From Candidatus Shapirobacteria bacterium (GTDB lineage Bacteria; Patescibacteriota; Microgenomatia; UBA12405): 64,000 nt of DNA. Both the position numbers and the translations under genes were made by a program. This document shows, piece by piece, positions 1 to 33,686 of this stretch. Below the pieces are notes generated by a model, which worked only from the letters and a program-made list of their open reading frames with translations, did no database searches and was not told where the DNA came from. The stretch lies in contig JBAYIT010000001.1 of the NCBI GenBank assembly GCA_041665485.1, positions 277,156 to 341,155 of the forward strand, read 5' to 3'. The number at the start of each line of letters is the position of its first letter. Within the stretch, counting starts at the first letter, position 1.

Positions 1-3000
1 AAGCGACTCCTGATCAGAGAGAGATAGATAGCTATGGAAGAAGACTGGGAGAGTTGGGGGCAATAAAAGAGGCGAGATTGGATTTATCGGCCTTAACTGA
101 AGATCAAAGAATTGCAATTGATTGGGTGCAAAGGGATGTGGAGCATCGAACATCGATTGATGAGGACGGGGTAAGGATATCTCGACAGGCGCAGTCAGAA
201 TTGGTGGCAATTGGTTTGGCCGATGATGCGGTGGCAAAGGAACTGGTAACAGCCGGAGGTAAGACAATGGCAGGAGCGATTATTTTGAGGATTAAAACAG
301 AGGTATTTGGAATAGATACAGGTATATATTTAGCCAAAGAAGGGGCAGAACCTAATATTCAACGAAACTTGAATCGAATGACTAGGTTTGGTGACAAAGT
401 GGTAATACTTGATTCGCAAAAATTGTCTGACCCAGCTTATTTCAAATCATTGATGGAGGCCAAATACGTAGTGGTGTCTAATAATGAATTATCTTTTACT
501 AGGGATCATGTAATGGATGTGGAAAATCCGATGTCCAAACAAGCAAATAGTGTTTGGAAGAAACTGACAAGGAGGGCGGCCGGTTATGCCGATGAGGCGC
601 AAATTACTTTGGATATCAACACTCAAGGAATTATCTCTAAAGGGGAAAGTAGAATTTATTCGGATACAGATATTAAGGTATTGGCGACTAAGAAAGTGGC
701 TCAAGTTTTAAGCGAAGAAAAGATTTTAGTAAAAGGAGATCAAAAAGCTCATGAAGGGAGGTTGGTTACTAGTGTTACACACGAAGGTGAAACACTGAAA
801 ATTTCGAGATTCGACAAGACAACTGAAGAGGCGATTATGACAAATTTAGCCAAACAAAATGAAGTTTCGCCTGATTTTTTCAAGAAAGTAAGACAGAAAA
901 AGACTGAGTTAGATTTGATTTTAAAAAATGGTGGCGGTGAGGTGGAATTGAAATCGGTATTGGGTGAAGGCTTTGATGGGGTGGAGAATTTATCTCAAAG
1001 AGTGGGGGGAGTGCTGGAAGAGCTGTCGATGGTAAGAACTTTTGCTCAAGCCATGGAAACCGAATACACCAGAACGGTTGATACTAAAATTCAGGCGCAA
1101 GGAACGGCTACAGGAGACAGATATGCCAGGGAAGTGTCGGTGCCAACTGGCGGAGGTAAAGCAAACTTTGGCCAAACATATCAGGGTGATATGAATTTGG
1201 CAATGGAGGCGGTAGGAGCAATTCGGGCAGGGGGAACACCAGAGTTTAATGGACTAAAAGGAAGTGAAAACAAAGCCTTTAAGTCGTCAGCGGCTGATTG
1301 GGTGGCAGATTTGCAATTGGATCCGGAAAGCTCAATTGTGGCGGTAACTGGTACTTTGGGCGGAAACAGAGGAGTAGTGGAGACGGTTTTGGGGCTTCGA
1401 GTTCATGCCAATGGTGAGTCAACAATAAAAATAGTGGGTGAGGTTGATACCCCGACGGGTAGATTGGTTAATGAAGATAATTCGATGGCAGCTAAAGACA
1501 ATATTGATAGAAATCAGTTGATCGAAGATGCAGTGACGACAGGGAAATTTGACACCAGTCGGGGTAAAGATTCTAAGGGAAATTTAAAGGTAGCTATGAC
1601 CAATAAAAACGAAGATCCTTTAGAGGTAGCTGTGGCAATTGATAAGGGCCGGAGGCAAAAGGGATTGGAGGAGACAACTTATTTTGTCCAACAAGGAGGA
1701 AGTGATTATTTTGAAATTAAACTGGGAGGTGATGGCACTGTAGTTAGCCGGGTATTGGTTACTGATAAACAAATTCAGGCCAGATATAGTAATGGAGAGG
1801 GCAATTTAGTAACAGTGATTGGCCGAGGCGGAGCAACAGGGGATAGTATTTTAACGCCTGATAGTACGCCATTCTTATTGATTACTGCCAAAGGTGATCC
1901 AACTTATACGGTGGCGCAGGCGGGAGCAAGAGGAAATCGGGGAAGCGGGGACATGGATACGTTGGCGATTGTGGTTGGGGAGGGTAGTGGACGGGCGGGG
2001 GGCAACACTTCGGCAGAAAGATTGGAGGTAGCAAAGCAGGCACTCGATTTTCCGGCTTGGAAAAAAGAAATTGATCTAGCAGAAAAAACCTTAAACAAGG
2101 ACAATATTACTACAGGATTAAATAATGGAGTGGCGGCAGATAGTGCGCGGATGATGTTTGACGCTTTGAGTAATAGTTCTGATGCTGAAGTGAAAGCGTG
2201 GGCATCAAAACAGACGTTGGAAAAATTTAATAAGGCAGAAACAGGAAGGGATCTGACAGATAGTGATGGCTTTACAACTAATTTGGAAAAACGAAACCAA
2301 ATTGCGGTTGAGGAATCGAGGCGATGGAAAGCAATTATGGATGATCCGGATAATCAAACGATATTGGCTAAAGTTAAGGCGGAGTTGCCTAATATTTATG
2401 AAAATATGCGGATAAATGCCCAGGAAGCGGTGGATTATCCTGGTGGCGGTTATTCATATGCCAGTGGAAAAGAGGGAACTAAGGACGCAGTTTTAGTGGC
2501 AAGAAATTTAAGAGAAGCACGAGAAATGCATAATCGAAACATTACAGCGGATTTGGAAAATAAGTACGCAGTAGTGGGGAAAGCGGATAGTAGTACGGTG
2601 GCGGATTCTACGATTAAACCCGGTGATGGCGGGGGTGCCTTGTCGGCGGCGGAAATTGGGAGTGCGAGGGTGTGGGGAGTGGTTGATCCGGCAATACCGG
2701 TGGCGAGTTTAGATCCGGTGGTAGTCCGGGTGGCGGTGGTGGCAAAACAAGCAGAAGCCGAAAAAGAAAGGGCCAATGCTGAAAGATTACGAATAGCTGG
2801 TTCGACAAATGCTCCGACAAGACAGGAAACACTTGATAGATTGAAAGAAGCGATAAAAATTGCTGAAGCGGAGAACGCAGAGTGGGAGAGGTTGTCAGAG
2901 ATTCCGGCATATGGCGATGATGGGAAGGCTATTTGGGAACATTCGGAATACAAGAGGAGAGTTGAGGCAAAAATTGTGGCAGTGAACAAGGAAGCAGCAA

Positions 3001-24000: not shown

Positions 24001-27000
24001 AGAGTTTTACTAAGGAATGGTTGGTGGAAATGGCGAATCAGAAGACTTATTATGATGGCCGATTTACAAGGCGGAAGGATAAAAAAGGAGTAGAGCGGCT
24101 GGTTCAAACAGTATATGATGATCGCCTTTTTGAACAATTTAGTCAGTATCAGTTACAAATGCTGAAGAAGTTTGAGAGTTTGGAGAAATTGATGGCAGAA
24201 AGGATGGAAGTAAGTGGAGAGGATGAAGGAAAGATGATTAGACTGATGACAGTCATCAAACCAGGTCCACAAGGAGGAGAGCTTTATTCGCAATTATTGC
24301 ATCAACTGAAGGGGGAAATGATGCCGGGTAAGGCGCAGGAGGAGGGAAAAAAGCTTTTGGCTAGAATTGGAGTGGAAAATGGCCAAATGTCGCAGGAATA
24401 TGTGGCGAGGATAATTGATCAAAAATTTTGGGGAGAGAGATTGGCTAGAGTGGGATTAAGTGGGGCAGTTAACTTCCGTCCGGGGCCAATTATCAATAAG
24501 ATTTTTGATGAAAATCTTTGGAATGAAGCCAATGATATAACGGCATTAACTAGAATTTTGGATTGGGTGTTGGTTTTACCTATGTCTGATTATTACCCGA
24601 GCGTATCGATGGAGAAAAAGGTTTTAGGAATGATGTTAACTTTGGCGTTAAAAGGACCAACGCAGGGAGAGTTAGTGTTTAATGAAGAGGTGGCCAAGAG
24701 GCTGGTGGAGGCGGGCTTACGGGTGTTGGAAGCCAATCCAAAATTAAAACAAAGTGAGTTGTATTACGATATTTTGGGTGACAATTATAATTTCAGAGGA
24801 GCACCTTTTTTGGTAAAGTTGGCTTATAAGAAGTATTTAGTGGCGGGATGGGGAATAGTTGACCTGTTTACAGCAGAAGAAGATTTTTATATTGCGGTTT
24901 TGAATCAAGATGAAGTGGCCTTGCAAAAAGTTTTAGTGGAACATCCGGATGCATCTTTGAATTACATAATGGCGGCGGCAGGCAACGGGGTTGGTGAGGA
25001 AAGACAGAAATGGTTGATGGCCGAAGTTAAAAAGTTTTTAGAAGGGCCGCAGTTTGATGGGGCGGATTGGAACGTGATGCATCCGGAAGAATCTAAGTTT
25101 ATGTTTAACTATCAGGCATCGATGGTTTTAGTTGAGGGCTATGAAGAAAGGCTTCGAGTGGCGGATTTAGTTCAGAATAAATATGTTGAGGTGATGATAA
25201 GGATGGATGATTCGAAATTGGGTAATTTGGTTTTTAAAATTTTTGAAATTCAGAGTATGTATGGGATTAATAAGGAGAAGTATCAGGAAAATGTCGAGAA
25301 AGTTTTTGGCTTACCGGTTTTTGATTTAGTGCAAAAAAGGATATTGGCCGAGAGTGGAAAGACAGGATATTGGGGTCAGCCAAAATACTTATATCGGAGA
25401 GCGGTAGCATTTTTGGAGGGTACCAGACAGATGTATGGGGGTGGGGTAGATTCTACCACTGTGGCAAACTATCCATTTTTTGGGGAGAATGCTTATGAAG
25501 CTAAGTTTTTGCAGCCATTTATTGAGCTGATGCTCAAGCAAGTAACAGACACTTACCCGGCTGATTTCCCCAAGACGACGACCACGGCTTTGAAGTATTA
25601 CCAAATAATTAAGGACTTACCGAAGAGTGATGAAAGAAAAGCGTTGCTTGACAGGGCGGTAGAGATGATGGTTCAACAAATGCCATTTGATGATTTGCTA
25701 AAGTTTGTTCAGGCAGAAATAGCCGATGGCAATGCTGAAATTGGAATTAAGTTTTTGGAGAATCGGGTGCAGACAAATTTAGAGTATCAAAAAGTTAAAG
25801 AAGCTTTTGGGAGTGATTTTACCAAAATGTTAACTGGCGGGGCGGTGGCGAAAGGGTCGGTGGGAGTGCTTTTGGATACGTTGATGAGTAATGTTCTTAC
25901 CGGCGAACAGACTTTTGAATTTTTTGAAGCGGCGCTAACCGGAGATGATGCCAAACTGAGATATTTTATGGGTAAGGCGTTTAGTGAATATCTTGGGTAC
26001 AACCAAGATGGAATAATGGTGCACGAGGATGGTTCAATTACGGGGACAGGGGTGGGAAATTTACCTATTTTTGAGGACTTGATGGCGGAGCTTTACAGTA
26101 TGTCGAAGATGCAAAAGACGGCTTTAATTTACAAAATTTTAGCTGATGATAGCTCTGGGATATTAAAACATGAAGAATTACATCCGAGAATTGCCTCTAT
26201 GATGCTTTCTAGGGTTGAAGGTGAGCCCGGGATGAAAACGTTTATGAATAAGGCCATTTTGGCGGTGTTGAAACAGAGAAGGGGGAGGACAAAAGTGGCT
26301 TTGGGGGTGTCGAGTAGTTTGGCAGACATCTTTTTAATGAAGCCGAAGCAAGTGGCAAGTAATGACTATGCAGTGAAGAGAATTATCGAAGGGAATTCTA
26401 ATTACAACGTTCTAAAAGATACTACCGGATGGTTGGAAGAGCAGAAAAAATATTTTTTGAGGGTATTGGGAACAAAAAAAGATGATGTAATGAAAGATCC
26501 GAGGAATAACGATCCGGTGGTGGTGGAATTGAGAAATGAGGTGGCAGAGATGTACAAAACAATGTATCAACGGATGGGGGTGGTTGAGAACAGTGGCCAA
26601 CAAACTTTGGGCTTTGAAGAGCAAAAAGTGCCAGCGACTAAATTTGTAGTTGAGATCGGCAAAGCCTTAGGAGCGTTGGGAGTAAGATTTTTGCAGGTAA
26701 TGGGCCAATACTATGAAATTACCCCGGAGATGCGAAACGACTTTCAAGCGGTGTATGACAGTGCGTCAAGTTTGTTTATGGCTAATGCTTTCCAGACGAC
26801 GGAAATGGGGATAGCGGCACTTAAAGCGGAAGCAGATAAATTAGAAGCTGATGGAACCAATCCTCAAAGAGTAGTGTGGTTGCGAGGGGAGGTGGCGGCA
26901 ATGGAAGAAAGGCAAAGGACAATGTTGGTAGTGAGAAAAATTGGCGGCGGGTCAATTAATACTGCCTATGAGGTAACTAAAATTGGGGGCGGGGAGCGCG

Positions 27001-29645
27001 AGGTTTATAAAATCTTAAATCCAAATACGCAGGAGGAATTAATGGCAGACACGGAATTGGTACAGAACGTGTTGGCGGAATTGATCCGTTCGGATCGAGG
27101 TAGGAGGCAAGACTATGAGGTGGCGGGTAAGTTAGTTTCAACCCTGGCTAATTGGATTGCCGAAGATGTGGCCGATGCTAATTATTTAACTTACGACCCG
27201 TATTTTACTCAAGCTTATGAGAGTTATTGGGGGCCGGAAGGAACAAGGATGCGTGTGTCGGAAACCAGGAGCCCTTATAATAAATGGACCAAGGCAGAAG
27301 GCTTTGTTGAGGGCGATACTTTAAAAGCGGCGATCAACGGAGTGGTTGGAAATGATCCACGGAGGCTTAAAGACACAACCAGCGATGAGGGACAAAATTT
27401 AATTAAAGTGATGAGTGATACAGTGAGCGATTATGTTCGACATATGTTTATACCGGTCAAGTTGGCTGACGGCAGGGAAGTTTATTTGTTGCATTCGGAC
27501 ATTCACATAGGGAATATCATGTTATCCACCCAAGGCGAGGGTTATGTAATTGATAGGAGTTATTATCTGGTGTTGGAGAAAAAGGATGTGGATATGATTG
27601 ATCAACTTTTAGCTGGTGACATCTCGGAGACGAAGAAGCTGGATATTTTAATTAATTATTTGTTAGATGAAAATAAGGTTACAGGTTTTAATCGGAATGT
27701 TCTTTACGGTAAGATGTTTTTAGCGGCGGCAAAACATCGAGCCAATACCGATGCGGCGGTGAATGCCTTGATGCAGGAAGTAGGGAGGAATGATTTGGAA
27801 GTGCCACTACGATTGAGGTTGTTTATGAAAAATATGAGTTCGGCAAACCGAATGTTGGAGTATATTGGCAATGAAACTTTGGGTGATTATGTACGAAGGT
27901 ATCATGAAGCAGAAAAGTTTCAGCAAGAATATTTTGATGAAGTAAGAAAATTGTTGACAGATGCTGGCCAGGATCCGGATGGAGTAGTGGGTAAACTATT
28001 GACTGGTGATTTTGAGGGTGGTTTTAGAATGTTGGAGGAGGTAACCTCAGCCTATGAGCCTCAAGGTTGTACTGATTGTTCGGTGTTTGTTCATGAAGTT
28101 AAAAAGAAAATTGCAGAGATAAACGGATTAACCGAACAGCCAGCTAGGTTAGCAAAACTACAAGAATTAAGGGATTATGTGTTTAATCACAAATTTGAAT
28201 CGAATCGGGTGGTGGAGGCTGGCGCCGAAGCGGTGGTAGAAATCGAAGAAGTGGTGGTGATTAAGACAGAGGAAGAAAAAGATGATGCTTTAAGAGCAAT
28301 TGATTTGGCGATTCAAAGAATTGATGAAGCCCTAGAGGAGAGTGGGTTGAGTGTAGGGGCAAGGGAGGCGTTGGGGGGTTATAGAGGGGAGATGGAGAAG
28401 AAAATGTTAGAAGTAATCTTTGTGATGTATGATGATTTTCTAGACGACAAAAGACAGTTATTTATTGGCGATAAGTCGGGATATTCTTTTTACGGATTAG
28501 TTGGTGATGAGGAAAAAGAATGGCTTGAAGAAGGGTTTTTGCCGATGCAGTTTAATTATGAGGATATTACTCTTTTAAATCAATTTGGTCGAAAGGTTTA
28601 TGTGTTGCCTCCTGGTTTGAGCGTGGAAAAACGAGCTGAGGTTGTGGGTGAAATAATTAACGGTGGAGATCCGGAGATATTATTACGTAAATTTGGTGAG
28701 GCACATTTGCGAAGTGATAGGGGGACAGATTTGTATTTTAATAAAGATCAATCTCCACTATTATTTGTCTATGAGCCGGTTGGAGAAGGGCCGCAGGGTG
28801 AAAAGATGGCGGGGGATTTATTGGCGGTTCTATACTCCGATACACCTTATCCTTCAATTGGAAATTATGTTCAAGAGCTTGTTGGTGAGCATAGACCAAG
28901 CGCGATGGTGTTGGAGACGTACACGATACCTAAAGATAAAGCTGAAGTATTAGGAAAAAAGATTAATCCAAATCGTCATGTATTGATGCCAAAGGGTAGT
29001 TTTATGACGCAAAAGGCTTTTGAGGAGGAATATTTTTGGGTGAATAGAGATGGCCAACTTGGTTTGTGGTCAGGACACTTACCTTCGGAGATTACTAAGA
29101 GAGTTGAAATGGCTAGAGTGGCGGTAGCTAACGGAGGCATTGAATTTCAAGAGTGGAAACAGGAATTGGGTAAAAATGAACTTATAACTTCAACTGATTT
29201 ACTGGCCAAATCAGGAACGGTGGCTCGTGGGATAGGTGCGGAGTATGCCCTGGCGACGGTTAGCTTAGGATTAAGAGCGGGTAGTAACGGAATTTTTTAT
29301 TACGGTCCATTTGCTTCAAGTGGTGGCTATTCCGACCCAGGTCTATTTGTAAATATTAATAGTGGTGTTTCGTTTGTGGTTGGGAGAGATATCGGTGATG
29401 CACGTAGAAAAATTCAGACTGACGAGGCAGGAGATAAGCAATATATTGCACTTGAGGATGTTCCTGCAGTTTTGGTGGGTAATGAAAAAATAAGATTAGG
29501 TTTACTTGATGGGATAAAGGCGTTGGAAGATGGCAGGGTGGTGAGGCCAGGAACATATGATTTTTGGAAAGACAGGATAAGGTTAATAACTGATATTAGA
29601 GTTAGAGAAGATATTGATGGTCTTTTTGGGGAGAGGGGTAGATAA
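1..29645 (+). CDS. Giant multidomain protein (>=9,863 aa; 5' end probably outside window). Contains long coiled-coil regions, calcineurin-like metallophosphatase, 2 FHA domains, PP2C-like phosphatase, protein-kinase-like domain, M48 metalloprotease, 3x CxxC-helix modules
   Basis: Single stop-free frame of 29.6 kb (track start TTG at 54; same frame has no stop back to nt 3: ...ATPDQREIDSYGRRLGELGAIKE...). Recognisable domain motifs are distributed along the whole length (see domain features). Stop TAA at 29643-29645, 15 nt before ruvA. Confidence 0.85.
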   Translation, partial: ATPDQREIDSYGRRLGELGAIKEARLDLSALTEDQRIAIDWVQRDVEHRTSIDEDGVRISRQAQSELVAIGLADDAVAKELVTAGGKTMAGAIILRIKTEVFGIDTGIYLAKEGAEPNIQRNLNRMTRFGDKVVILDSQKLSDPAYFKSLMEAKYVVVSNNELSFTRDHVMDVENPMSKQANSVWKKLTRRAAGYADEAQITLDINTQGIISKGESRIYSDTDIKVLATKKVAQVLSEEKILVKGDQKAHEGRLVTSVTHEGETLKISRFDKTTEEAIMTNLAKQNEVSPDFFKKVRQKKTELDLILKNGGGEVELKSVLGEGFDGVENLSQRVGGVLEELSMVRTFAQAMETEYTRTVDTKIQAQGTATGDRYAREVSVPTGGGKANFGQTYQGDMNLAMEAVGAIRAGGTPEFNGLKGSENKAFKSSAADWVADLQLDPESSIVAVTGTLGGNRGVVETVLGLRVHANGESTIKIVGEVDTPTGRLVNEDNSMAAKDNIDRNQLIEDAVTTGKFDTSRGKDSKGNLKVAMTNKNEDPLEVAVAIDKGRRQKGLEETTYFVQQGGSDYFEIKLGGDGTVVSRVLVTDKQIQARYSNGEGNLVTVIGRGGATGDSILTPDSTPFLLITAKGDPTYTVAQAGARGNRGSGDMDTLAIVVGEGSGRAGGNTSAERLEVAKQALDFPAWKKEIDLAEKTLNKDNITTGLNNGVAADSARMMFDALSNSSDAEVKAWASKQTLEKFNKAETGRDLTDSDGFTTNLEKRNQIAVEESRRWKAIMDDPDNQTILAKVKAELPNIYENMRINAQEAVDYPGGGYSYASGKEGTKDAVLVARNLREAREMHNRNITADLENKYAVVGKADSSTVADSTIKPGDGGGALSAAEIGSARVWGVVDPAIPVASLDPVVVRVAVVAKQAEAEKERANAERLRIAGSTNAPTRQETLDRLKEAIKIAEAENAEWERLSEIPAYGDDGKAIWEHSEYKRRVEAKIVAVNKEAAKLGVATVDPVTGKQRPIKDINDEIALKKGTGSVGIGEDETKKQNDRAKEFGTVRRSGEENKELEIRLDGIKREYDALKSLGIERVADTSGKLPAYGVFMSGAIKELDKQMESYGLRYNSSDGIEKNVEDLKVAKAEKRDEVIRLAETAGVEGVDWSTLTTTEIKRMTVDKIAGNEADIVRQKAEAEAEARIATIVGQIRAIKTDYVRPDELDENGANADLAKVKEERSELVDQINGIDGGQKKADLEKMTIGDLEARLADRQEKLTSLKAEYKRLAGEETGVGEIQKLTGQIGSLVATRTGLETTAKIKGITATVTDALSNPAIQEMINDDNNAEAEFRNTRSGEGFMWRDRNNGELEGDYEFEWNKEKEAKRRELRAEIARVAGGEVAGLENLTVKELEVRLKQEELVATSRANLVQLQATWSGLVPEAARYGREHGISPDQTENSYRTAITGLRNWIAEAERTRQTTLGKIRDLDGVVAVANTNTTNLGVLDEVLTTVKKNNTDLIALDNEIKKYLGADYKTDRSQGLVKALEVAEAKLAEVKRQWNDLWTQIDEIRGVRTSDKVRLGQKNLTTLGRVKELANTRALRASEAEQQRQVEEVTRNETRRVALVVEVRNIWGDVSLEPDGLEKMTIVQVGLEKAKANQALVQARQEATKNGATPTELAGAKNIKAMRDLVAKKVEEATILADEQRRQAEEVARQAKAEADRKAEEARVVEEQRLAKIAADKQLVDRVMAEVNGIVVTTGSNQDETKEALQAAVNRLVGIDTITAKGANDLINQKKALIKKVEEYYEGQDVNDALVTGVARVLGVAQVNNWNTKLGALQNYVDEQMFSNPTFWPDVGEEVVVQKIGEKLKELLGTSDQVMATEIKNRWNTKLVAERSRREEIRRENELFAHKQQYFSGEKAIPNLTDKEKESIMDAVDRNAVDTIVARLRVEKELKKAIGEVVSRTGVNGDLKGHLTEADVRKAENIEALNQMVAKAEVAKGLAVAERVAGGEWAGERGKWLNITKGRNELDIDYIKKVEKAERRVVVEQANKILAGLNSEMARELERYVVERKSILEKMTAEGVTVAIGEHLAQYAQRWYYRDTPGSIYQTVIKNMRDTPGELGNVYALSVERVVGSQQQAMIDNQLARLKTTVGKGVAAKRVALGDVHSDVEQLARILRGEVNVGADFKPVLDKSNNWIGGKTVIRLTGDLIDKLPPGMTGIQVLQTIRNWQKQARDAGGDIIITLGNHDIHTIAMANGVLEEPMITSGVDIHLILELRKPEYGDLLNWFTQLPLITKSEESGNIYIHSDTVAYLEYGDTIEEIDQNIRSILTTGRGLPGKIAPTSYLRTDPATKERSWVRGVSPIEALMHNLTGRRGEFKDPNNVTRFLTILDGKGIIHGHNPGVSYDDPRVINVDAGMSLGMYKPGDDPGLQRGRAIVSTILPGGELKIDIERRFAQVKISDKDLPDVADLWLIKPTLRPEKNIILGRNEGVDLPVNDSRVSSKHARLSRDLAGFWWIEDNSSTNGVAVWEGKYWRELKNIDPVARNTGLRDRSRLVDGSIISLNRDTNLSLWFRVKVDGNGEISLEPYSSQPQQPGLGVEAPAKTSQQDGDVAKSNLLQVMAQNAGIEVGSVVEKMNNMANEARSGGFKNLPSNLNNQSNIIEIVNMNAALVVYFKADYRSRAGVDLTKPVVVGATANCFDWQKAYVMAISEIGKPASQPSVAPSAAPSVAPAPIIVPPAGDTGVVLGVDSKGREVRIKTVNGKEEVVVENLIIKHNSIGTVLGNGTKYEKSVAGEPGDVVAVNGKGENQIRVSFSKDGKVVQVKVGGIVVEKKEANEAITVADLVVREVTLNTAADQSGVKKAVTRAKAELDKIDPKIASEVESKLGPIRTRIVEIENHVARVEGYYAGKSNIVVAEQVARVLGVVGMDKGDDVYAVVDGLWGGIEMVRIEDVSTDTSIIANIRGEIMSRRLGISDSQIVELAKFIAGNWTTQVAAERVRRADLTKAKTEYWRAESAKSNLAAAALYELGGGSYAVNLTSRYQTLDQFKIAVEEQLRIANYLVDGYKTANPEITDEDIESAFTGFGTSGSTAFAFKSVMNGVDERAKARVAEARVKALPIEGFLTVEEVTAKKTVKEIDDLVEEKGRERDSYIAKQKEELRQVAPLTQDEEKAIDGASGKTAIDRELVKIKQAIATRVLIEDQKKNPLVKVGNGYKNNSGRSIKYHTTDNQKTWTWVAGQVIPEETLKNKIVEVDDDRVIWVNGQGVVTTYTIALTNADYKPLQAKFLDKKGNVIKDKDGKVDLDSSKVEGVESYEVKGSDGTITVFHVANAKFPQGVKSKRELVANMAWVVSRTREVIGNQAKDVSNEVLLVPQEATSFGGMAPGVKSEDVNSVMVVVYDLVKTQSVLAHELGHEHFGSSPVTDISEGVAINVSMEAIGGGVDQERMDGILDQPFDVKGEGEGIITSTGLATLDKATEKDRWLYTYKSGTFLIRSLIEVVGDRSKAWEMVGRLMEAGRKKFYWSEGLVVTRISGGATVDYATAIDELLVDVGFNAEQRTAVYEKQSTYLYLGNKAQIKYEESEVTKKIGTKPGNGGYVIRGMFLAKEHVEMVRTRRGGLLLISNKSKMGTRVFREGQWQEVRVGGDPTELREGDVVKLGSIGSSVYFKVVDLYGRLDLKEIEAYGVKGKEKNKEERVLGEDPVVTEYRRKLWDNYRYEDPHEWRLGILRTAMNTRISDVTRMRARAAKYGVENDISWAGRTTEEMRADLEAKVGPMVVALNARAKAVGLVDIKDEETVEDFVKNISEIERYIGLYKLLNKGSADGLNFGVEGFQQLSTRLKAKIWELARQRGVASNKFVTFSIATAKEMLNRIDVLNARAEKVGLAPKSSDVSEIGYFYDLERTESLIKLLKFMGKTDIGVGKLMESGELYERLIGLLEERAKELGLTDLGDVSDENKVSMVRDRLNAGWVEKAQKEGLTVTVATGDWPVDMERKYESAKEQFLIAEYGGLAVARPRGDDTFLVWESWLRKAKSDNNRKIEMAVLEGLNVGGLTSTMTESELVAKISELRRRAKEEYLGRITDRVRLVGVAGTSWIILEKDTQSLEQFKKDVDSAGDLAVSLVEQAKEEVPEMKQTDIDAEFATSKTGTVNGRLVEAKLVATRRLNLAKQPVVVRTMTGGDLEGFLTTTEIEAKKTVKEINDLVAEKGRERDNYKVKQKDGLDSGGKAVIDKAKGKTAIDKAVADINQERVNLEARAKVVGMTVTKQQSGEQLGRLIKALEEANSMMVDANNLAEAKKLLAKLNAEPAYKGSPVIAELEGKIGVVALRSALPNGQRPEDLTVKNKLLPEYQVALEEMYQGVPDGFKKQAKLAAYYFQSLDTGEKLVTAQGYDLTPYRDRFLEAFSHTGFANVVQPGSKMYDVAPAEAYPIWLQEKQVAIREERRVASEGWDYSKVETFVNQYLRNYGKLDSSSGQDYYFFDSSRGAKEVEKPLTYNNKMYIENGQLMDLDKLGEFFDQLKILGIHPNEMKSFEDGSSLVLYWSGGLLDSEVKMIQDVLAKVGLKARGPAQDPIRLVVGKDGKLGMTVFGSNDASLGDAGRNPFIWSDKYNEGEFFKQWLRLTYYGQKNPADPYRMSFIRAEVDKAKLADAELEKKLREVDTAGLPIVISSNFGPSSSEYLFGTSFGNSQGKIIYKAESNVDLAEAQQAQEQSKKQQQAVGGFFGVAESTFRSLGDDFGRWNVANQAVGWYNMAKVVEVYNAMAEAEGITDFSQVVDADDSLREFLRQKLLVKNLSLEDGQMNGLVEYLEEKLKGGVEEEIRGRKTERRLPAGVNLLFVQDDVDLGVNEDENIVYLISGESVKTVDLSQIPDLFYFDETQQNHVPKEATIDQDGWELRGMSPYDVEIKKGAVKIFVKFGRRMQYDKIMWLRMYVSDGLVFEWVKLGDNPQLTGYLLEGQYLSGDSRGDDLAYIEQLRRLRNLAIRVLGSDVSGDGLRRFYVVETLLPSANGMTTDEILNKIEERWQKKIDEVNLKARRLGLAPMGEGDDYDGYNAKVANFESRLNVLRGVGKEAPRLEYARVLNSARYSDFYWQVNRPALENVDMATAQVNNGIERKTIWDSWLKTVVGKGLRVVNGNVVWGVIDFGKEPTADVVGELERRAQEIVTKYNDSVVVLERWSERVGQRLDYVGDMEKFLEDKQETLNSCREANERLLKFGQEYGLREDELTAIKSIARLNQTTQDYSRKEAELPGRFSALNVGIVRDPKQRLDEYENQLVELQQMVDNGLALSDQLDGETNSQYLSRMKEKESLEYGKLKEIAKQNGLNDVDIKQFGTLGKLRKEIVRLLKEEIKLLGGDVEADGIEDIEQLVVLKGTVQEQKRMEKENLLIEIMKYYPDYSNGGISAIKSDLAKAVARRNEVAGQIMIVNPNLADKVNATNNIAELEKMLEVAKGAREVDQKTAVANKSVGGQIDQYFEKIKDDLERGRFVARTLGWSNFGRWDDVYNAMAEVEGLTDFSQVTDLDQLAKFIRDQDRIKALQLEKTQEDQVVEYVRRKLEGRVKEGLERRAKSAGVEGELGKVKVALAGLVGVDKVGGYEVSADGLTQAKADLAEASRSAGKLAQRIIELDPAKSLEVTRLNIPALEKMLREMESEARIKELVRRGGTVVAGNTPVLAALEAKPQVQDIAKLEAVERSVTAMLGELETEVADPRVAKVLGDLRLQQQRAASLRVILEQEVLVAEGQQLAVEVGEVKGKVEARQDLARQKGVISSLLTRARALQGKLEKIVSRERKVASARETVKGNISTLERLETEANMVALSEKLGRGKVELIIRENGQESGNRLDVNVAYLDAIASDLDVLIGQQRLVIAELDGVLGELDSVATLGDLSPKTMAVVKKYIPKMVVTDKVAEVVGELRDRRQEYRDVVGELLGLQAALRNRTKFDGLSNGAGKIVKRSLARRFHPDTVGEIVTVKLGGETLLVDLESRRNIQPLISELFINPKIIGKFEFGGAIETPSGSGARNGGTASAGQNIRKSGQDVVVSFYDTKVRIRRDRGRYYLYNDGPSWMNVDVAGRNELVIVFSSKVYELKNGDFFYDQYGVGYRFVDNGGVAYLLDAQGNIVWVFDQDQSRRSDEVRIETNNVVFDLPSLGILANIFVTNTDASGVVKIYIDETTTGTIYVKKEQIGGFSVKQNYPPGSYQLGDGDEVTIAGVVYTVINQPQLGTIIMGSDGKQYKIRDPWGGKSMRDKAREDREPISLKFAGILDKMNKIDAILLSMGVADYESKMVQVEAIADRLEIDMADVEAQIGGWFRNYGNYLGPNDGIRQSMETMSRDLKQKRLNLVERKKMLANIQKFAIKWKLGINHGLAYETMIGNLGKLDTKLAEEYRRGLTDIRTDMVANGFILRSGMPGSGETKAEILKSVESDLVAIDSYIGVVMRINELKSGRAKIGEWEIEAGEVRRLGQILVAERTATRPLSSSMVFDIREKMLNALNQLVAENVAKARGLTTKDRDQILSWEASLKKNVSNVQMMEVIIQAEEMQGRVGESKGSISGVVGGNWRNRLTKIIAENWRRLTENYSNLWIGKMVADTTQVIENEKKAVSFASEEEARRWVVERIENRMSAYLDSPPGGLSWLQGQIESGETSVLAKRLAGVVVATLQGARGDLSKQILGAVSYSSKPVDYSQWSQAAKTNISIQVEENSLRVARFHPYVRQGRSKEDRAATLVDSRGYAIGQVIADGHSRDKKAGQLVEQVVANVQSNLKRYDWTTMDRKGAERILVGIYSQISLNFAFEERGAVLQVAVVTTDGYVVMNVGDPTLLTVDVRGRIVEHGGGDWATVAEAMQKYDKAIWDRWVPDPFSIDTRGVWRDDRLLMVANTIGDDASARRGIQIVREYLAKNQGRMNPELRRILDGAVNYRMEYFGKDEVAGVIIGSDAVVDNSKKTGGFETVVKKSLSQNSEDVISRMVGMISPDVLGKSVDDLSVGYLKWSEYFGGVGSVEVTLDTAKTGQIKIGNVVVGGGQGSQTSGSAAAKVVYEPIIIGRNENDLDGMFRFNQTVSRRQANLTLEGGDLFIDDAGSMNGTWVNGVRITGRTKLYSSDEVKFGLGSQEVVLRFGLEGTTWVAVQKTTGKRYVFNFQKAGFQPNGCSDCSVVRQTVEKLVAKAKGFYEAGNSAEFQRLIDLAYGYNNNHTFVNEVIQQYGMANISYVEAIMKRTAETVKYAQKMAALSLEKVDVVRDGEALTGGALAELDGIESDVKAKQGELGKIEVVKQSEEEQAAEVKAIDERQRALDEKKKAGDAKTEQQKSEEMKVVEDEVAVVEEMEPSVKVVEESDLGIKSSESVKTTRARIIKDGKDLGWYIVKEFRSSEVVQDNLDDYQLLKEKGFPVPAEVMVIPGRPNSIAVTDLTENGKYEIYSYNNITDGAIKPNISNFDEVKRQFRDIAQRADDNGWLMTNDSYFLVLDPITYVGRVVVGDFGGAVMTKEEAVKQYGYLKSDTSLKMVENFMLPTLASVFNGGEVGAVAAAEYKPLGCSDCAVCDVTVDQIITQANDEAIKGNDQKALEILRGLTAYANSHVYDNKVAQRLQNLRIAVAEAIIARTSETQSYALMQANLAIDEIERVLKEPGLTTGQIIGLVHEREEEVKPAIKKVRAIRVSQSKLGEMFESRLRRAEISVAGVVGTEVEAVRQRMEAGTEELSVVLEKKLMSVDRVIEPQIGEHLLEAKNPKMFLAVKRLLNFSNQNERFLDDNEGVVVGLQKIMDDLTIVVNKERVAGKKKAMPAVKVFVQVGGEPNAFSLPDGSIVVTQSLINLMRTEDEIAAILVHEFSHFEDHFMDWREDIFDKGGLGEEVGQPLVSRLQEHKADYVGARLKKIGFNGMAMTSALENLQIYVADFEKAQNETIQKDWRRKIWKFFGIKTVDEWKAGTDVAHGSIANRTAGQEVGNKFIEHGGEAVAPREVPSGWKGKAGVDEIYGHLVGDNYGPEWEKALRSAPSEVVRQYMESFTKEWLVEMANQKTYYDGRFTRRKDKKGVERLVQTVYDDRLFEQFSQYQLQMLKKFESLEKLMAERMEVSGEDEGKMIRLMTVIKPGPQGGELYSQLLHQLKGEMMPGKAQEEGKKLLARIGVENGQMSQEYVARIIDQKFWGERLARVGLSGAVNFRPGPIINKIFDENLWNEANDITALTRILDWVLVLPMSDYYPSVSMEKKVLGMMLTLALKGPTQGELVFNEEVAKRLVEAGLRVLEANPKLKQSELYYDILGDNYNFRGAPFLVKLAYKKYLVAGWGIVDLFTAEEDFYIAVLNQDEVALQKVLVEHPDASLNYIMAAAGNGVGEERQKWLMAEVKKFLEGPQFDGADWNVMHPEESKFMFNYQASMVLVEGYEERLRVADLVQNKYVEVMIRMDDSKLGNLVFKIFEIQSMYGINKEKYQENVEKVFGLPVFDLVQKRILAESGKTGYWGQPKYLYRRAVAFLEGTRQMYGGGVDSTTVANYPFFGENAYEAKFLQPFIELMLKQVTDTYPADFPKTTTTALKYYQIIKDLPKSDERKALLDRAVEMMVQQMPFDDLLKFVQAEIADGNAEIGIKFLENRVQTNLEYQKVKEAFGSDFTKMLTGGAVAKGSVGVLLDTLMSNVLTGEQTFEFFEAALTGDDAKLRYFMGKAFSEYLGYNQDGIMVHEDGSITGTGVGNLPIFEDLMAELYSMSKMQKTALIYKILADDSSGILKHEELHPRIASMMLSRVEGEPGMKTFMNKAILAVLKQRRGRTKVALGVSSSLADIFLMKPKQVASNDYAVKRIIEGNSNYNVLKDTTGWLEEQKKYFLRVLGTKKDDVMKDPRNNDPVVVELRNEVAEMYKTMYQRMGVVENSGQQTLGFEEQKVPATKFVVEIGKALGALGVRFLQVMGQYYEITPEMRNDFQAVYDSASSLFMANAFQTTEMGIAALKAEADKLEADGTNPQRVVWLRGEVAAMEERQRTMLVVRKIGGGSINTAYEVTKIGGGEREVYKILNPNTQEELMADTELVQNVLAELIRSDRGRRQDYEVAGKLVSTLANWIAEDVADANYLTYDPYFTQAYESYWGPEGTRMRVSETRSPYNKWTKAEGFVEGDTLKAAINGVVGNDPRRLKDTTSDEGQNLIKVMSDTVSDYVRHMFIPVKLADGREVYLLHSDIHIGNIMLSTQGEGYVIDRSYYLVLEKKDVDMIDQLLAGDISETKKLDILINYLLDENKVTGFNRNVLYGKMFLAAAKHRANTDAAVNALMQEVGRNDLEVPLRLRLFMKNMSSANRMLEYIGNETLGDYVRRYHEAEKFQQEYFDEVRKLLTDAGQDPDGVVGKLLTGDFEGGFRMLEEVTSAYEPQGCTDCSVFVHEVKKKIAEINGLTEQPARLAKLQELRDYVFNHKFESNRVVEAGAEAVVEIEEVVVIKTEEEKDDALRAIDLAIQRIDEALEESGLSVGAREALGGYRGEMEKKMLEVIFVMYDDFLDDKRQLFIGDKSGYSFYGLVGDEEKEWLEEGFLPMQFNYEDITLLNQFGRKVYVLPPGLSVEKRAEVVGEIINGGDPEILLRKFGEAHLRSDRGTDLYFNKDQSPLLFVYEPVGEGPQGEKMAGDLLAVLYSDTPYPSIGNYVQELVGEHRPSAMVLETYTIPKDKAEVLGKKINPNRHVLMPKGSFMTQKAFEEEYFWVNRDGQLGLWSGHLPSEITKRVEMARVAVANGGIEFQEWKQELGKNELITSTDLLAKSGTVARGIGAEYALATVSLGLRAGSNGIFYYGPFASSGGYSDPGLFVNINSGVSFVVGRDIGDARRKIQTDEAGDKQYIALEDVPAVLVGNEKIRLGLLDGIKALEDGRVVRPGTYDFWKDRIRLITDIRVREDIDGLFGERGR
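6440..7250 (+). other. Domain in giant ORF: calcineurin-like/PPP-family metallophosphatase
   Basis: Ordered motifs RVALGDVHSD (GDxHG-like, nt ~6465), IRLTGDLIDK (GDxxDRG-like), IIITLGNHD (GNHE-like, nt ~6710), later IIHGHNPG...NVDAGMS (GH motif). Confidence 0.65.
7390..7715 (+). other. Domain in giant ORF: FHA (forkhead-associated, phosphothreonine-binding) domain 1
   Basis: NIILGRNEGVDLPVNDSRVSSKHARLSRD...WIEDNSSTNGVAVWEG...RLVDGSIISL...LSLWFRV matches FHA signature (GR...SR.HA...D..S.NGT...L.dGD.i.lG...f.f). Confidence 0.75.
10195..10245 (+). other. HExxH zinc-metallopeptidase-like motif in giant ORF
   Basis: VLAHELGHEHFGSS; motif only, family not assignable. Confidence 0.3.
20100..20835 (+). 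other. Domain in giant ORF: PP2C/PPM-like Ser/Thr phosphatase
   Basis: GQVIADGHSRD (cf. xADGMGGH), VVMNVGDPTLLTVDVRG (cf. NVGDSRaylxrdG), RDDRLLMVANTIGDDAS (cf. GDRYLLCSDGLSDxVS) in the order expected for PPM phosphatases such as PstP. Confidence 0.55.
21100..21345 (+). other. Domain in giant ORF: FHA domain 2
   Basis: PIIIGRNENDLDGMFRFNQTVSRRQANLTLEGGDLFIDDAGSMNGTWVNGVRITGRTKLYSSDEVKFGLGSQEVVLRF. Confidence 0.8.
21420..21600 (+). repeat. CxxC-helix module copy 1 (protein-level repeat in giant ORF)
   Basis: PNGCSDCSVVRQTVEKLVAKAKGFYEAGNSAEFQRLIDLAYGYNNNHTF. Confidence 0.5.
22030..22580 (+). other. Domain in giant ORF: degenerate kinase-like region with DFG-like motif
   Basis: ...DNGWLMTNDSYFLVLDPITYVGRVVVGDFGGAV... 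followed by the CxxC module; lacks clear glycine loop/catalytic HxD, possibly pseudokinase. Confidence 0.3.
22580..22780 (+). repeat. CxxC-helix module copy 2
   Basis: PLGCSDCAVCDVTVDQIITQANDEAIKGNDQKALEILRGLTAYANSHVY, preceded by GDFGG. Confidence 0.5.
23330..23690 (+). other. Domain in giant ORF: M48-family (Ste24/HtpX/BepA-like) zinc metalloprotease
   Basis: GEPNAFSLPDGSIVVTQSLINLMRTEDEIAAILVHEFSHFEDH (M48 HExxH signature) followed ~35 aa later by SRLQEHKADYVGARLKKIGFNGMAM (cf. SRxxExEADxxGxxLxxKAGYDPxxM with third-ligand Glu). Confidence 0.7.
26925..27600 (+). other. Domain in giant ORF: protein-kinase-like (PKL; ABC1/APH-like) domain
   Basis: Glycine-rich loop VVRKIGGGSINTAYEV, conserved lysine REVYKILNP, catalytic loop LLHSDIHIGNIML (cf. 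HADPHPGNILV of ABC1/APH kinases), Mg-binding YVIDRSY (DFG-equivalent). Confidence 0.6.
28055..28200 (+). repeat. CxxC-helix module copy 3
   Basis: PQGCTDCSVFVHEVKKKIAEINGLTEQPARLAKLQELRDYVFNHKF, preceded by GDFEGG at the end of the kinase-like domain. Confidence 0.5.
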
Positions 29646-29660: not shown

Positions 29661-30233
29661 ATGATTTCAAGCCTAAAGGGAGTAATAACTAAAATTTGGG
29701 GGAGTAACTTAGAAATAGAGGTGAATGGGGTTGGATATGATGTGAAGTTTAAAGATCAAAGATCAAAGTTTAAAGTTGGAGATGAAATTAGATTAAAAAT
29801 TCATATGGCGGTGAGTGAGCATGATATTAGCCTTTTTGGCTTTGAAACAGACGAAGAATTGGATTTATTTAAATTATTAATAACGGTTTCTGGGGTGGGG
29901 CCGAAAACCGGGGCGCAGATATTGGGAAATTCGACGAGTATGGAGATAATTAAAGCGATAGGGGAGGCGGATGTGGGCTTTTTTGGAAAAATTAAGGGGA
30001 TTGGTAAGAAAACGGCCCAAAGAATAATTGTCGATTTGAAATCAAAGATTGGGGGCTTGGGAGAGTTGAATTTGCGGGATGATTTGCCACTACTTGACGA
30101 TGACTTGGGGGCTAGTTTACGGCAATTGGGATTTGATAGAAAAGAGATAGACAAGGTTATAGTAAAGTTGCCATCTGAACTAGAAACATTAGAGGAAAAA
30201 CTGCAGTGGTGTTTGCAGAATATGGGAGGGTAG
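29661..30233 (+). CDS. ruvA: Holliday junction DNA helicase RuvA
   Basis: MISSLKGVI...NGVGYDVKF...LFGFETDEELDLFKLLITVSGVGPKTGAQILG (RuvA domains I-II, HhH). Track start 29655 is TTG; ATG at 29661 preferred. Confidence 0.9.
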   Translation: MISSLKGVITKIWGSNLEIEVNGVGYDVKFKDQRSKFKVGDEIRLKIHMAVSEHDISLFGFETDEELDLFKLLITVSGVGPKTGAQILGNSTSMEIIKAIGEADVGFFGKIKGIGKKTAQRIIVDLKSKIGGLGELNLRDDLPLLDDDLGASLRQLGFDRKEIDKVIVKLPSELETLEEKLQWCLQNMGG

Positions 30234-30262: not shown

Positions 30263-31222
30263 ATGAGTAAGGATGATTTAGACCCGAAACCAACCAAGGA
30301 AGAAAAGGTGGTGGAAAAAAGTTTGCGACCACAAACTTTATCTGAATTTATTGGCCAGGAGAAAACTAGACAACAGCTTAGGATTTTTATTGAGGCGGCC
30401 AAAAGGCGAGAAGAGGCAGCTGATCATATTTTGTTTTATGGGCCGCCGGGATTGGGAAAAACAACCCTAGCGTTTTTAATGGCCAAGGAAATGGGAGCGG
30501 GAATTAAAATTACTTCCGGGCCGGCCATAACTCGGGCGGGGGATATAGCGGCCATTCTTTCCACCCTAAAAAAAGGTGATTTTTTGTTTATTGATGAAAT
30601 TCATCGGTTAAACAAGGCGGTGGAGGAAATGCTATATAGCGCCATGGAAGATTTTGCTTTAGATATAATTTTGGGCAAAGGGCCGTTGGCAAAAACTGTT
30701 AGATTAAATTTACCTAAATTTACAATTGTGGGAGCAACAACTCGAATTGGAATGTTGTCGGGGCCACTGCGGGATCGGTTTGGTTATGTTCAACAATTGG
30801 ATTTTTACGATGATAATGAATTAAGAGAAATTGTGGAAAGAACGGCTGATGTATTGAAAGTTAAAATAGAGAGGGAAGCGGCGGGGGAGATTGCCAGGAG
30901 GAGCCGAGGGACGCCACGGGTGGCTAATAGGCTTTTGCGGCGGGTGCGCGATTTTGCCCAGGTCAACAGTGATGGATTAGTAACTTTGAAGGAAGTAAAA
31001 GAGGCCTTAGAAATGCTTGGGGTGGATGAAATGGGCTTGTCTGATGCTGACAGGCGGTATTTGGATATAGTCAAAACGCAGTATGGCGGGGGGCCAGTGG
31101 GAGTAGAAAATATCGCTGCGGCTTTGACGGAAGACATCGATACTATAACAGAAGTTTATGAGCCGTTTTTGATGAAAAAGGGGTTGGTGAAGAGAACGCC
31201 CCGCGGACGAGTAACAAATTAG
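30263..31222 (+). CDS. ruvB: Holliday junction DNA helicase RuvB (AAA+ ATPase)
   Basis: [19 protein letters not shown]...[16 protein letters not shown] (Walker A), FIDEIHRL (Walker B), C-terminal winged helix. Confidence 0.95.
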
Positions 31223-31537: not shown

Positions 31538-31539
31538 AA

Positions 31540-31914: not shown

Positions 31915-31969
31915 ATCAAAAAAGGAGCCCTCCTAAGAGAACCCCTTTTAAGTCAAAGTAATTGTCGTT

Positions 31970-32224: not shown

Positions 32225-32445
32225 GGTGTGTATCGGGGCAGGTCTAAATAATGTTTAACTATAAAGAGTAAACCATAAAGGATGTTAGTGTGTCAATATG
32301 ATAGTCGAATGTAGAAAGTTAAAAGTTTATAAAGTTTGGGAAAGTGAGGAAAAGTACAACAAGAGAGCAATGGGGAGGGGAAGAAAGGGAGGGGAGGATA
32401 GCCGGGCCCAGGGTGTCAGAAGATGACAGTGGGCCCGGCAGGAGA

Positions 32446-32610: not shown

Positions 32611-32618
32611 TTTGTCCC

Positions 32619-32795: not shown

Positions 32796-32796
32796 T

Positions 32797-33684: not shown

Positions 33685-33686
33685 TA

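Follow-up and report, generated by a model that had tools for sequence, protein, structure and literature searches.

A giant gene upstream of ruvAB in a Shapirobacteria chromosome

We analysed a 64,000-nucleotide stretch of DNA (hereafter the window) from a Candidatus Shapirobacteria bacterium (GenBank assembly GCA_041665485.1, contig JBAYIT010000001.1, forward-strand positions 277,156 to 341,155), the first 29.6 kb of which are taken up by the 3' part of a single giant gene that ends directly upstream of ruvA and ruvB (Table 1). A first-pass annotation, made from the sequence alone, had described its product as a fusion of a Ser/Thr phospho-signalling toolkit with protease domains and had judged that the true start probably lies beyond the window. 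We find that it belongs to a so far undescribed family of giant proteins, restricted to the candidate phyla radiation (CPR, or Patescibacteria), and that of the members seen it is the longest and the richest in domains. Frame +3 is free of stops from nucleotide 3 to the TAA codon at 29643-29645, that is over 9,880 codons without a single N, and the open reading frame (ORF) listed from the first TTG (54-29645, plus strand) encodes 9,863 aa. Residues are numbered throughout as in the window, residue i beginning at nucleotide 3i. Over the same span the remaining frames hold 786 and 1,030 stops on the plus strand and 326-432 on the minus strand; since stops amount to about 8-10% of codons in the other plus-strand frames, chance is effectively ruled out as the source of so long an open frame. 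On the source contig in ENA (ERZ27249449, k141_1025756, 411,674 bp), which is identical to the window at this locus, the gene was called with an 11,461-aa product, in agreement with the supposed upstream start; as the frame runs off the 5' edge, about 1,581 aa (~4.7 kb) lie upstream of the window. The whole gene measures ~34 kb and the protein ~1.26 MDa.

We regard the giant ORF as real and contiguous. The suspicion to be weighed is that of an artefact, either an assembly chimera or a decayed or fused run of genes that lacks stops by chance and is not translated as one protein. Such an artefact could be suspected because the full length is present in one assembly only, made by a short-read assembler, and because a separate gene of at least 1,848 aa stands before the homologous region at another locus (L084, below), which shows that large genes can adjoin at such loci. 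Besides the stop-free frame itself, however, neither GC content (0.40-0.45) nor GC skew shifts along the gene, and codon-position GC and skew match those of the neighbouring plus-strand genes, with a skew at third codon positions (GC3 skew) of +0.58 in the giant gene versus +0.60, so that composition is uniform and codon usage native. No long exact or inverted repeats able to drive misassembly were found within the gene. An independent assembly (JGI 3300037810, an 11.8-kb contig, L002) agrees with the window at 99.84% identity across the last 888 codons (2.7 kb) of the gene, ruvA, ruvB and 7.5 kb beyond, a re-assembly that covers the 3' end only. Together with the conserved catalytic motifs and with collinear blocks in a complete 6,575-aa homologue found on 8 contigs (P0008, below), this makes an artefact very improbable. 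Two JGI metagenome scans, with the CxxC pattern described below and with the first 400 aa, gave no match that restores the N-terminal ~1,580 aa.

The gene is a native chromosomal gene of a Candidatus Shapirobacteria bacterium. Among the GTDB species genomes, the nearest relatives of the RuvB encoded in the window were those of ~30 metagenome-assembled genomes of Candidatus Shapirobacteria/Patescibacteria (69-87% identity), followed by Firmicutes and Actinobacteria at no more than 60%, and the CPR origin presumed earlier was thereby borne out. The stop codon lies 15 nt before the ATG of ruvA, as had been read, and no terminator-like site was found between the two. Co-transcription with ruvAB, which had been proposed on this ground, is therefore plausible, although the adjacency, real as it is here, is not conserved in the homologues.

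Table 1. Features of the giant gene and of ruvAB; nucleotide positions are those of the window.
Feature	Nucleotides	Strand	Residues	Remarks
Giant gene, 3' part	3-29645	+		9,880 codons in the window; 11,461 aa in full on the source contig
Conserved N-proximal block	117-2573	+	39-857	34% identical to P0008 aa 1916-2720; no known domain
ApaH/PPP-type calcineurin-like metallophosphatase	6456-7178	+	2152-2392	GDVHS, GDLID, GNHD, HGH
FHA domain 1	7419-7727	+	~2473-2575	GR...SSKH...TNG signature
Module A, copy 1	9000-9452	+	3000-3150	Duplicated internally
Candidate zincin-like metallopeptidase region	9930-10238	+	~3310-3412	Around HELGH; sub-threshold matches
Module A, copy 2	12201-12641	+	4067-4213	37% identical to copy 1
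Conserved block	13029-13994	+	4343-4664	Matches P0008 aa 3442-3766; no known domain
Module B, copy 1	14091-14456	+	~4697-4818
Module B, copy 2	16329-16688	+	~5443-5562	38-39% identical to copy 1
PP2C-like phosphatase	20130-20957	+	~6710-6985	Asp motifs by eye
FHA domain 2	21108-21308	+	7036-7102	FHA and following CxxC module paired also in P0011
CxxC helical-bundle module, copy 1	21405-21812	+	7135-7270
Minimal kinase-fold domain, RIO/HopBF1-like	21966-22553	+	7322-7517	Conserved Lys, 'D-S/A-Y-F-L-V' loop, GDFG
CxxC helical-bundle module, copy 2	22575-22952	+	7525-7650	AF2 model: five- to six-helix bundle
M48-like gluzincin and adjoining conserved region	23100-24197	+	7700-8065	HEFSH 7822, EHKAD 7858; start of core cassette
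Protease-kinase intervening region	25425-26627	+	8475-8875	In P0001, P0003, P0008, P0009, P0011, P0068, P0081; no known domain
ABC1/UbiB-like atypical kinase domain	26628-27947	+	~8876-9315	FLQVMGQ, IGGGS, VYKILNPN, HSDIHIGN, VIDRSYY
CxxC helical-bundle module, copy 3	28029-28415	+	9343-9471
C-terminal ~400 aa	28416-29642	+		No detectable relatives or domains
ruvA	29661-30233	+		ATG at 29661; TIGR00084 3e-46
ruvB	30263-31222	+		NF000868 1e-145

Phosphatase, FHA and protease domains

The first-pass annotation had read a PPP-like metallophosphatase, two FHA domains and a PP2C-like domain along the chain, and profile searches matched all of them in the order given, the PP2C-like domain less firmly than the others. 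In the whole-chain Pfam scan, Metallophos (PF00149) passed the gathering threshold (GA) marginally (23.1 bits vs 21.5), the NCBIfam ApaH model matched the same segment at E 4.9e-7, far under its equivalog cut-off, and the sequence matches in the PDB were ApaH and a cold-active PPP-like phosphatase (E 2e-4). The metal-binding motifs GDxHG, GDxxDRG, GNH[DE] and the later His/GH are intact as the variants GDVHS, GDLIDK, GNHD and IIHGHN. Both FHA domains scored well over the threshold (PF00498, 47.3 and 47.7 bits vs 20.7; E 2-3e-12), the match of the first consisting of aa 2477-2521 and a second stretch that we took as the other half of the same domain, and both matched the NCBIfam FhaB/FipA models (E 3e-9 and 4e-7) as well as GarA/OdhI in the PDB. 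The residues that bind phosphothreonine (pThr) read GR, SSKH and TNG in the first domain and GR, SRRQ and MNG in the second, where His is replaced by Gln, a variant considered tolerated. PP2C_2 (PF13672) reached 19.3 bits (aa 6710-6825) against a threshold of 24 in the scan of the whole protein, and exceeded it (26.0 bits, E 8e-6) only when aa 6690-6990 were scanned alone, with the N-terminal 60% of the profile covered; the Asp motifs read by eye are ADGHS, IIGSDAV and VDDLSV, and a PDB sequence search with this segment gave no match.

The HExxH, CxxC and DFG motifs are all present as previously read. HExxH occurs at aa 3405, 7822 and 8723 in a motif scan of the window protein, and an M48 protease had been proposed together with a second metalloprotease motif. 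Peptidase_M48 (PF01435) matched aa 7769-7828 with 41.4 bits against a threshold of 20.3 (E 2e-10), over profile positions 13-77 of 186, i.e. the motif-bearing part, and the third zinc ligand of gluzincins (ExxAD) follows HEFSH by 36 residues as EHKAD, both motifs being present also in the 1,493-aa homologue P0001. The M48 assignment is thus upheld. No hydrophobic segment was found near this domain, in contrast to the integral-membrane or periplasmic context of the classical members Ste24, HtpX and BepA; because it is embedded in a soluble region, we name it an M48-like gluzincin core and not a classical M48 protease. The first HExxH (HELGHEH, aa 3405) yielded sub-threshold zincin matches, with Peptidase_M60 at E 0.003 (17.6 bits vs a threshold of 25.8) and Reprolysin_3/Reprolysin_5 at E ~0.2, while its segment gave no meaningful PDB sequence match and is not conserved in any homologue found; for the third (aa 8723) we found no supporting domain evidence. 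Of the two proposed metalloprotease motifs, both are therefore present and the M48 one holds, and the chain probably carries one or two metalloprotease domains, the first HExxH being at best weakly zincin-like.

Two atypical kinase-like domains

The DFG motif at aa 7473, formerly noted as part of a DFG-like region, belongs to a segment (aa 7322-7517) for which a minimal kinase fold was modelled with confidence, and on this model we consider the fold established. An exhaustive HMMER search with aa 6701-7900 found small proteins of ~190-235 aa and the C-terminus of a 4,404-aa protein that match this segment at 24-45% identity; none of the stand-alone homologues carries a Pfam domain. In a profile search against PDB sequences HopBF1 was returned weakly (E 0.23), with 'LKNLGFPV' and 'EDLQFLV' aligned to the conserved motifs of the mini-kinase, among which the Lys, the loop Asp and GD[FL]G are conserved.

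The second kinase-like domain, also foreseen in the first-pass annotation, was recognised by its catalytic-loop motif 'LLHSDIHIGNIML' at aa 9164, which together with 'IGGGSINTAYEV', 'VYKILNPN' and 'VIDRSYY' resembles an APH/ABC1-type kinase. Scanned alone, the segment matched Fructosamin_kin, ABC1 and APH at E 0.01-0.04, all at the catalytic loop, and its weak PDB profile matches were kinase-fold enzymes at the same loop, with the exception of one designed helix bundle and a single unrelated protein. Searching for homologues of the C-terminal 921 aa led to P0001, a complete protein of 1,493 aa with an N-terminal M48 (3e-11) and a C-terminal ABC1 domain (1.2e-16, 61 bits), which aligns to giant aa 7788-7883 and 8584-9292, the kinase part (aa 8976-9291) at 2.8e-19. 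GGGS, the beta3 Lys, S-D-x-H-x-G-N and D-R do not vary among eight aligned homologues; in Pfam four of the eight match ABC1 (best 9e-18), three APH and one Pkinase, and the 7,435-aa homologue P0011 has a precomputed ABC1 match. A KxGQ-like FLQVMGQ, partly conserved only, precedes the domain. Judged through homologues that match Pfam ABC1 at 1e-16 to 9e-18, aa ~8876-9315 are ABC1/UbiB-like. The Hanks-type Pkinase (PF00069) had no match at E <=0.1 anywhere in the 9,880 aa, and by their sequences neither kinase-like domain is of the Hanks, PknB-like type; phosphorylation of proteins by either is a prediction.

A repeated CxxC module and internal duplications

CxxC occurs at aa 7144, 7530/7533 and 9356, each time within a module of ~130 aa. 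The two CxxC modules read earlier are indeed a repeated domain, but in three copies and not two, 27-32% identical among themselves and ~31% identical to the C-terminus of another large ORF upstream of ruvA (L003, below; E 7e-11), with related segments in P0002 and P0011. The second Cys, one His and one Asn are invariant in all copies, and the first Cys is displaced only in P0002. Modelling suggests a generic TPR-like helical bundle, and we consider the module a previously unrecognised repeated domain. The 9,880 residues contain just 9 Cys, seven of which lie in the three copies of 'P-x-G-C-[ST]-D-C-[SA]-V'. A tiled self-search detected three sets of diverged internal duplications, namely module A, module B and the CxxC module itself, by which the protein has grown.

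A family of giant proteins in CPR bacteria

Family members were found by exhaustive HMMER search, and the large matches were then compared locally with the whole giant. P0003 (2,945 aa) shows 38% identity to giant aa 7698-9341 in an alignment of 1,730 aa, P0009 (2,411 aa; HCM67646.1, Kerfeldbacteria) aligns with aa 7734-9356 and has an inserted PDZ, and the complete P0008 (6,575 aa, identical on its 8 contigs) shares four collinear blocks (aa 39-857, 4343-4664, 7700-8065 and 8475-9315). FHA with CxxC, M48 and ABC1 were found in P0011, and M48 and ABC1 in P0068 (5,426 aa; MBT4358903.1, Paceibacterota, named 'M48 family metalloprotease') and P0081 (6,217 aa). All members with a named source come from CPR bacteria. 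In terms of sequence the conserved core consists of the M48-like metalloprotease, a conserved region of ~600 aa and the ABC1/UbiB-like kinase. Proteins of 2.4-7.4 kaa in several CPR lineages have this cassette as their core, and since it is common to the homologues and also stands alone as the 1,493-aa P0001, the M48-to-ABC1 cassette is the evolutionary unit.

The window's giant and the other cassette giants are homologous and collinear over aa ~7700-9340 in BLASTP alignments (22-41% identity), with kinase motifs common across the family, HExxH...ExxAD in the giant and in P0001, two upstream blocks also in P0008 and the FHA-CxxC pair also in P0011. In contrast, the window's giant is the longest seen (11,461 aa vs at most 7,435 aa), it alone combines Metallophos, PP2C, a second FHA, the mini-kinase and three CxxC modules, and the others have nothing equivalent to most of its sequence. 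A second kind of relative, P0002 (4,404 aa) and P0152 (4,419 aa; MFA7301742.1, Candidatus Shapirobacteria, 'protein kinase'), is from the same candidate phylum and likewise a membrane-anchored giant with kinase domains, having the CxxC module and a mini-kinase that is 45% identical. In P0002 the CxxC module, a canonical Hanks-type Pkinase (2e-14) and the mini-kinase stand in tandem, which ties the CxxC and mini-kinase modules to Ser/Thr signalling. Unlike the giant, these proteins have that Hanks-type domain, adjoin dnaA-dnaN rather than ruvAB and show no detected similarity to the M48-to-ABC1 region, P0002 giving no Pfam match to M48, ABC1 or FHA.

The loci of the family differ: P0008 lies among suf genes, P0011 beside Wzy_C and Fic genes and P0002 beside dnaA-dnaN and genes resembling those of a type IV secretion system (T4SS). 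On the Logan contig with P0003, a second large gene (L084:1-5547), at least 1,848 aa long and truncated where the contig ends, precedes the cassette gene by 176 nt and bears no similarity to the giant, so that giant genes can be adjacent at these loci. A SIMPL-domain (PF04402) gene was seen directly upstream of P0002 (L085:9304-9969) and one gene downstream of P0008 (L088:30360-31157). T4SS-type genes were observed no more than a few kb away from family members or from stand-alone mini-kinases at L085:24775-32289, L090:16151-16687 and L092:848-3019; they encode VirB4/AAA_10-like, TraC-like, PrgI-like and DUF8128/TrwB-like coupling ATPase proteins and a 1,119-aa Peptidase_C39_2-like protein.

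Topology and possible function

No transmembrane-like segment was found in the window part of the protein. The homologues with complete or near-complete N-termini, however, are predicted to start with a transmembrane segment (TM), a Cys-containing ectodomain and a second TM. In P0008, KRK stands before a first TM (aa 7-33), several Cys pairs follow, and the second TM (aa 908-939) is Gly/Ala-rich; P0152 has TMs at aa 7-29 and 544-574, and in P0081 the N-terminus is signal-like and a TM rich in Gly and Ala spans aa 752-777. As aa 1916 of P0008 corresponds to aa 39 of the window, or about residue 1,620 of the full-length protein, the missing 1,581 residues are of the right size for such an anchor.

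The best reading of these data, which we hold tentatively and with slightly less than even confidence, is that of a membrane-anchored, receptor-like hub of Ser/Thr phospho-signalling. The missing N-terminus would anchor the protein through TM1, ectodomain and TM2 in the manner of a sensor kinase, as in the homologues, and would leave the enzyme-bearing remainder of ~10,000 aa in the cytoplasm of the symbiont, where ATP-dependent kinases and Mn/Mg phosphatases need to be. To judge from their domain families, the kinase-like domains might write phospho-marks on the chain itself or on clients, the FHA domains would read pThr and bring about assembly or a conformational change, the ApaH/PPP-type and PP2C phosphatases would erase the marks, and the gluzincin could cleave a client or the chain itself as output. 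Around the cassette core, the giant has accreted the mini-kinase, the two phosphatases, the two FHA domains, a possible second zincin, three CxxC modules and the duplicated orphan modules. From homologues and domain families we infer topology, catalytic activity and substrates alike, and likewise any link to host contact.

Several points weigh against this reading. The anchor and topology of the window's own protein are deduced from homologues only. The mini-kinase lacks the canonical loop Asn, so that its catalytic competence and its membership of the HopBF1 family are putative, and the giant's own ABC1 (PF03109) score is sub-threshold (13.7-14.4 bits vs 22.9). Both kinds of domain, ABC1/UbiB and the RIO/HopBF1-like minimal kinases, are atypical, and UbiB-type proteins may be ATPases or small-molecule kinases. 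The accessory domains are not conserved across the family, the record of P0008 lists M48 only and the blocks that it shares include no FHA or phosphatase; what looks like a complete toolkit may therefore have accreted by accident and not be a functional unit. In approximately 60% of the chain neither a domain nor a homologue is recognisable (~20% of the 9,880 aa fall in named domains, and ~17% more are conserved with a homologue, the rest being orphan). Finally, Cys is depleted about 10-fold in comparison with the neighbouring genes (0.09% vs 0.92%), which is more typical of exported or translocated than of cytoplasmic proteins.

The Cys content, low throughout the family and typical of proteins that cross membranes unfolded, would fit a translocated multi-effector, with the chain, or fragments freed by its own M48-like or zincin protease, delivered from the episymbiont into the host bacterium to rewire or blunt its Ser/Thr signalling, as suggested by analogy with MARTX-type and polymorphic toxins, of which releasing peptidases are a hallmark. 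The closest specific relative of the mini-kinase in structure and sequence is, moreover, HopBF1, a type III effector kinase (reviewed in PMC9950578), CPR bacteria are episymbiotic and their hosts use pThr/FHA pathways to sense them (PMC13622651), and T4SS-type ATPase genes lie near family members at L085, L090 and L092. This proximity could nevertheless be chance in genomes of ~1 Mb; the homologue N-termini look like a stable anchor and not a secretion signal; a chain of ~1.26 MDa is an implausible translocation substrate unless processed; the family loci have neither an immunity-like gene nor a conserved secretion-system neighbour; and domain scans (Pfam, PHROGs, NCBIfam) found no toxin-type domains. 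On balance we consider delivery into the host unlikely, though it is the main rival of the hub.

The large orphan share, in turn, could point to a mainly structural role as a giant scaffold, tether or cytoskeletal element, for instance of an attachment organelle or in division and segregation, with the enzymes as minor regulatory inserts. The ~60% without enzymatic signature is charged and modestly helix-favouring in composition, modules are duplicated internally, the TPR-like CxxC bundle would be suited to protein binding, the giant gene adjoins ruvAB (with a mini-kinase gene between ruvC and ruvA at L090, below), and the CPR giants described to date are surface or attachment proteins (PMC8080830). 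We nevertheless think a scaffold distinctly improbable, for the chain shows no adhesin, Ig-like, fn3 or repeat architecture as in surface giants, the conserved part of the family is the enzymatic cassette and not the orphan regions, and the intact catalytic motifs argue for selection on catalysis. The anchored signalling hub thus stays our preferred reading. A bolder proposal, which seems doubtful to us at present, is that these proteins form a private CPR class of giant receptor-like proteins in which a complete writer-reader-eraser-protease circuit on one membrane-anchored chain, assembled from atypical parts, replaces the multi-gene signalling networks absent from these ~1-Mb genomes and couples host contact to the physiology of the symbiont, or else that they are processed and injected against the pThr-based epibiont sensing of the host.

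The ruv locus and the remainder of the window

The first-pass annotation had suggested a search for syntenic giant ORFs beside ruvA in relatives. Among ~30 Shapirobacteria ruvAB loci no giant homologue was found upstream, and conserved synteny with ruvAB was rejected, none of these loci having an upstream homologue save for the CxxC module in L003; a functional link of the giant gene to Ruv is not supported. In L003 (CAZIHS010000020.1), whose RuvB is the closest (87% identical), another, dissimilar open frame (L003:1-7884; at least 2,628 aa) runs off the locus and stops 1.4 kb before ruvA; it has no Pfam matches and only the C-terminal CxxC module in common with the giant. In this sub-lineage, fast-evolving giant genes may have a hotspot at the site before ruvAB. 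In L090 (GCA_964503465.1, CAZCYZ010000003.1; RuvB 72%) positions 6752-9769 encode a Metallophos protein (261 aa), RuvC, a stand-alone mini-kinase, a 158-aa protein and RuvA, in that order. The mini-kinase, between ruvC and ruvA, is 46% identical to giant aa 7324-7517, while relatedness of the Metallophos gene to that of the giant was not detectable. This gene order suggests local gene capture or fission at the ruv locus, the giant gene having perhaps taken up a local mini-kinase gene or been the source of one. As a general arrangement, a mini-kinase beside ruvA was rejected, since L090 is the only other genome with it and it is absent at the remaining loci; the other stand-alone mini-kinase genes have contexts different from that in L090.

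A phage origin was also rejected, a scan of viral contigs and a phage tblastn having returned no relatives, as was a plasmid origin, the plasmid tblastn having returned the generic M48 motif alone. PHROGs gave one family of unknown function, at the M48 motif. The other genes of the window are ordinary CPR content, coding for CTP synthase, a Mur ligase, FemAB, DegT, a 2-hydroxyacid dehydrogenase, two mannose-1-phosphate guanylyltransferase paralogues and small PIN, MerR-type and BrnT/CopG-type proteins, and searches of the window for tRNAs and Rfam families found nothing. The two guanylyltransferase paralogues are tandem and overlapping (43050-44090 and 44087-45112) and match only the N-terminal part of TIGR01479. 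Right after ruvB, positions 31262-33900 hold a run of very small genes, with a PIN-domain protein, a MerR/HTH_17 regulator (minus strand) and several domainless ORFs of 80-150 aa, over which GC skew falls to 0.17; this may be a small accessory island. Two direct repeats of 63 nt (95% identical, 660 nt apart; 36513-36575 and 37173-37235) bracket a BrnT-toxin/CopG-antitoxin pair (~36634-37171), which may be a small mobile cassette; such a pair also lies directly upstream of dnaA in another Shapirobacteria genome (L085/L086). A 413-aa protein (38611-39852) carries an OmpR/PhoB-type winged helix (Trans_reg_C) at its C-terminus only, its N-terminal ~320 aa having no family match in the domain scan and the protein no receiver-domain match.

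Strand asymmetry is extreme, with a GC skew of ~+0.4 over the whole window. The GC3 skew is +0.58 to +0.60 in plus-strand genes and -0.68, on their own strand, in minus-strand genes, and because the latter show the opposite sign the asymmetry is a mutational bias and not a coding effect. Related Shapirobacteria loci (L003-L033, L090) have GC skews of +0.27 to +0.43, and a similar strand disparity was reported in other Microgenomates (PMC7143001).

Significance and comparison with known systems

CPR bacteria have tiny genomes and almost no characterised signalling. The gene makes up 8% of the 411.7-kb contig and perhaps 3-4% of an assumed ~1-Mb genome; being so costly, with its catalytic motifs kept intact, it must matter to the organism. 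The analysis defines an M48-to-UbiB-like cassette, a HopBF1/RIO-like mini-kinase family, both stand-alone and embedded, and a new helical CxxC module of ~130 aa. Should the protein be a receptor-like hub or an injected effector, it would bear on how episymbionts sense or manipulate their hosts.

The fusion had been put forward as undescribed. Neither this giant family nor the mini-kinases of CPR bacteria nor the CxxC module were found described in the literature searched; the protein is not one of a kind, however, as public databases already contain, under automatic names, giant CPR relatives that carry subsets of its modules. CPR giants reported earlier are adhesin-like and of at most 4,163 aa (PMC8080830), and a survey of huge proteins mentions neither CPR nor these domains (PMC11573180).

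The writer kinase, eraser PP2C and reader FHA logic would recall the PknB, PstP, FhaA-FhaB and GarA proteins of Actinobacteria, and the FHA domains of the giant score best against the FhaB/FipA, GarA and OdhI models. Those, however, are separate small proteins with a Hanks-type kinase, whereas the giant joins atypical kinases to a PPP/ApaH-type phosphatase and metalloproteases in a single polypeptide. With HopBF1 and the RIO kinases, the mini-kinase shares 'LKxxGFPV' and 'DxxFLV' as in HopBF1, plus a DFG-type motif. The similarity is not significant (the profile E of 0.23 given above), no sign of type III secretion or of an HSP90-like substrate was seen for it, and the CPR mini-kinase is embedded in a giant chain or stands alone at ~210 aa. 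A parallel in scale is provided by the giant multi-enzyme proteins documented in Omnitrophota (West-Roberts et al. 2023, 10.1101/2023.11.21.568195; 10.64898/2026.06.07.730766), which likewise are non-repetitive chains of at least 10 kaa tiled with varied enzyme domains in ultra-small, host-dependent bacteria, many of them membrane-associated and some with signalling modules. They belong to another phylum and, in a comparison made by literature description only, carry domains of sugar metabolism, histidine-kinase ATPases and methyltransferases. Proteins above 10 kaa, as far as we found mainly described in Omnitrophota, are hereby extended to the CPR.

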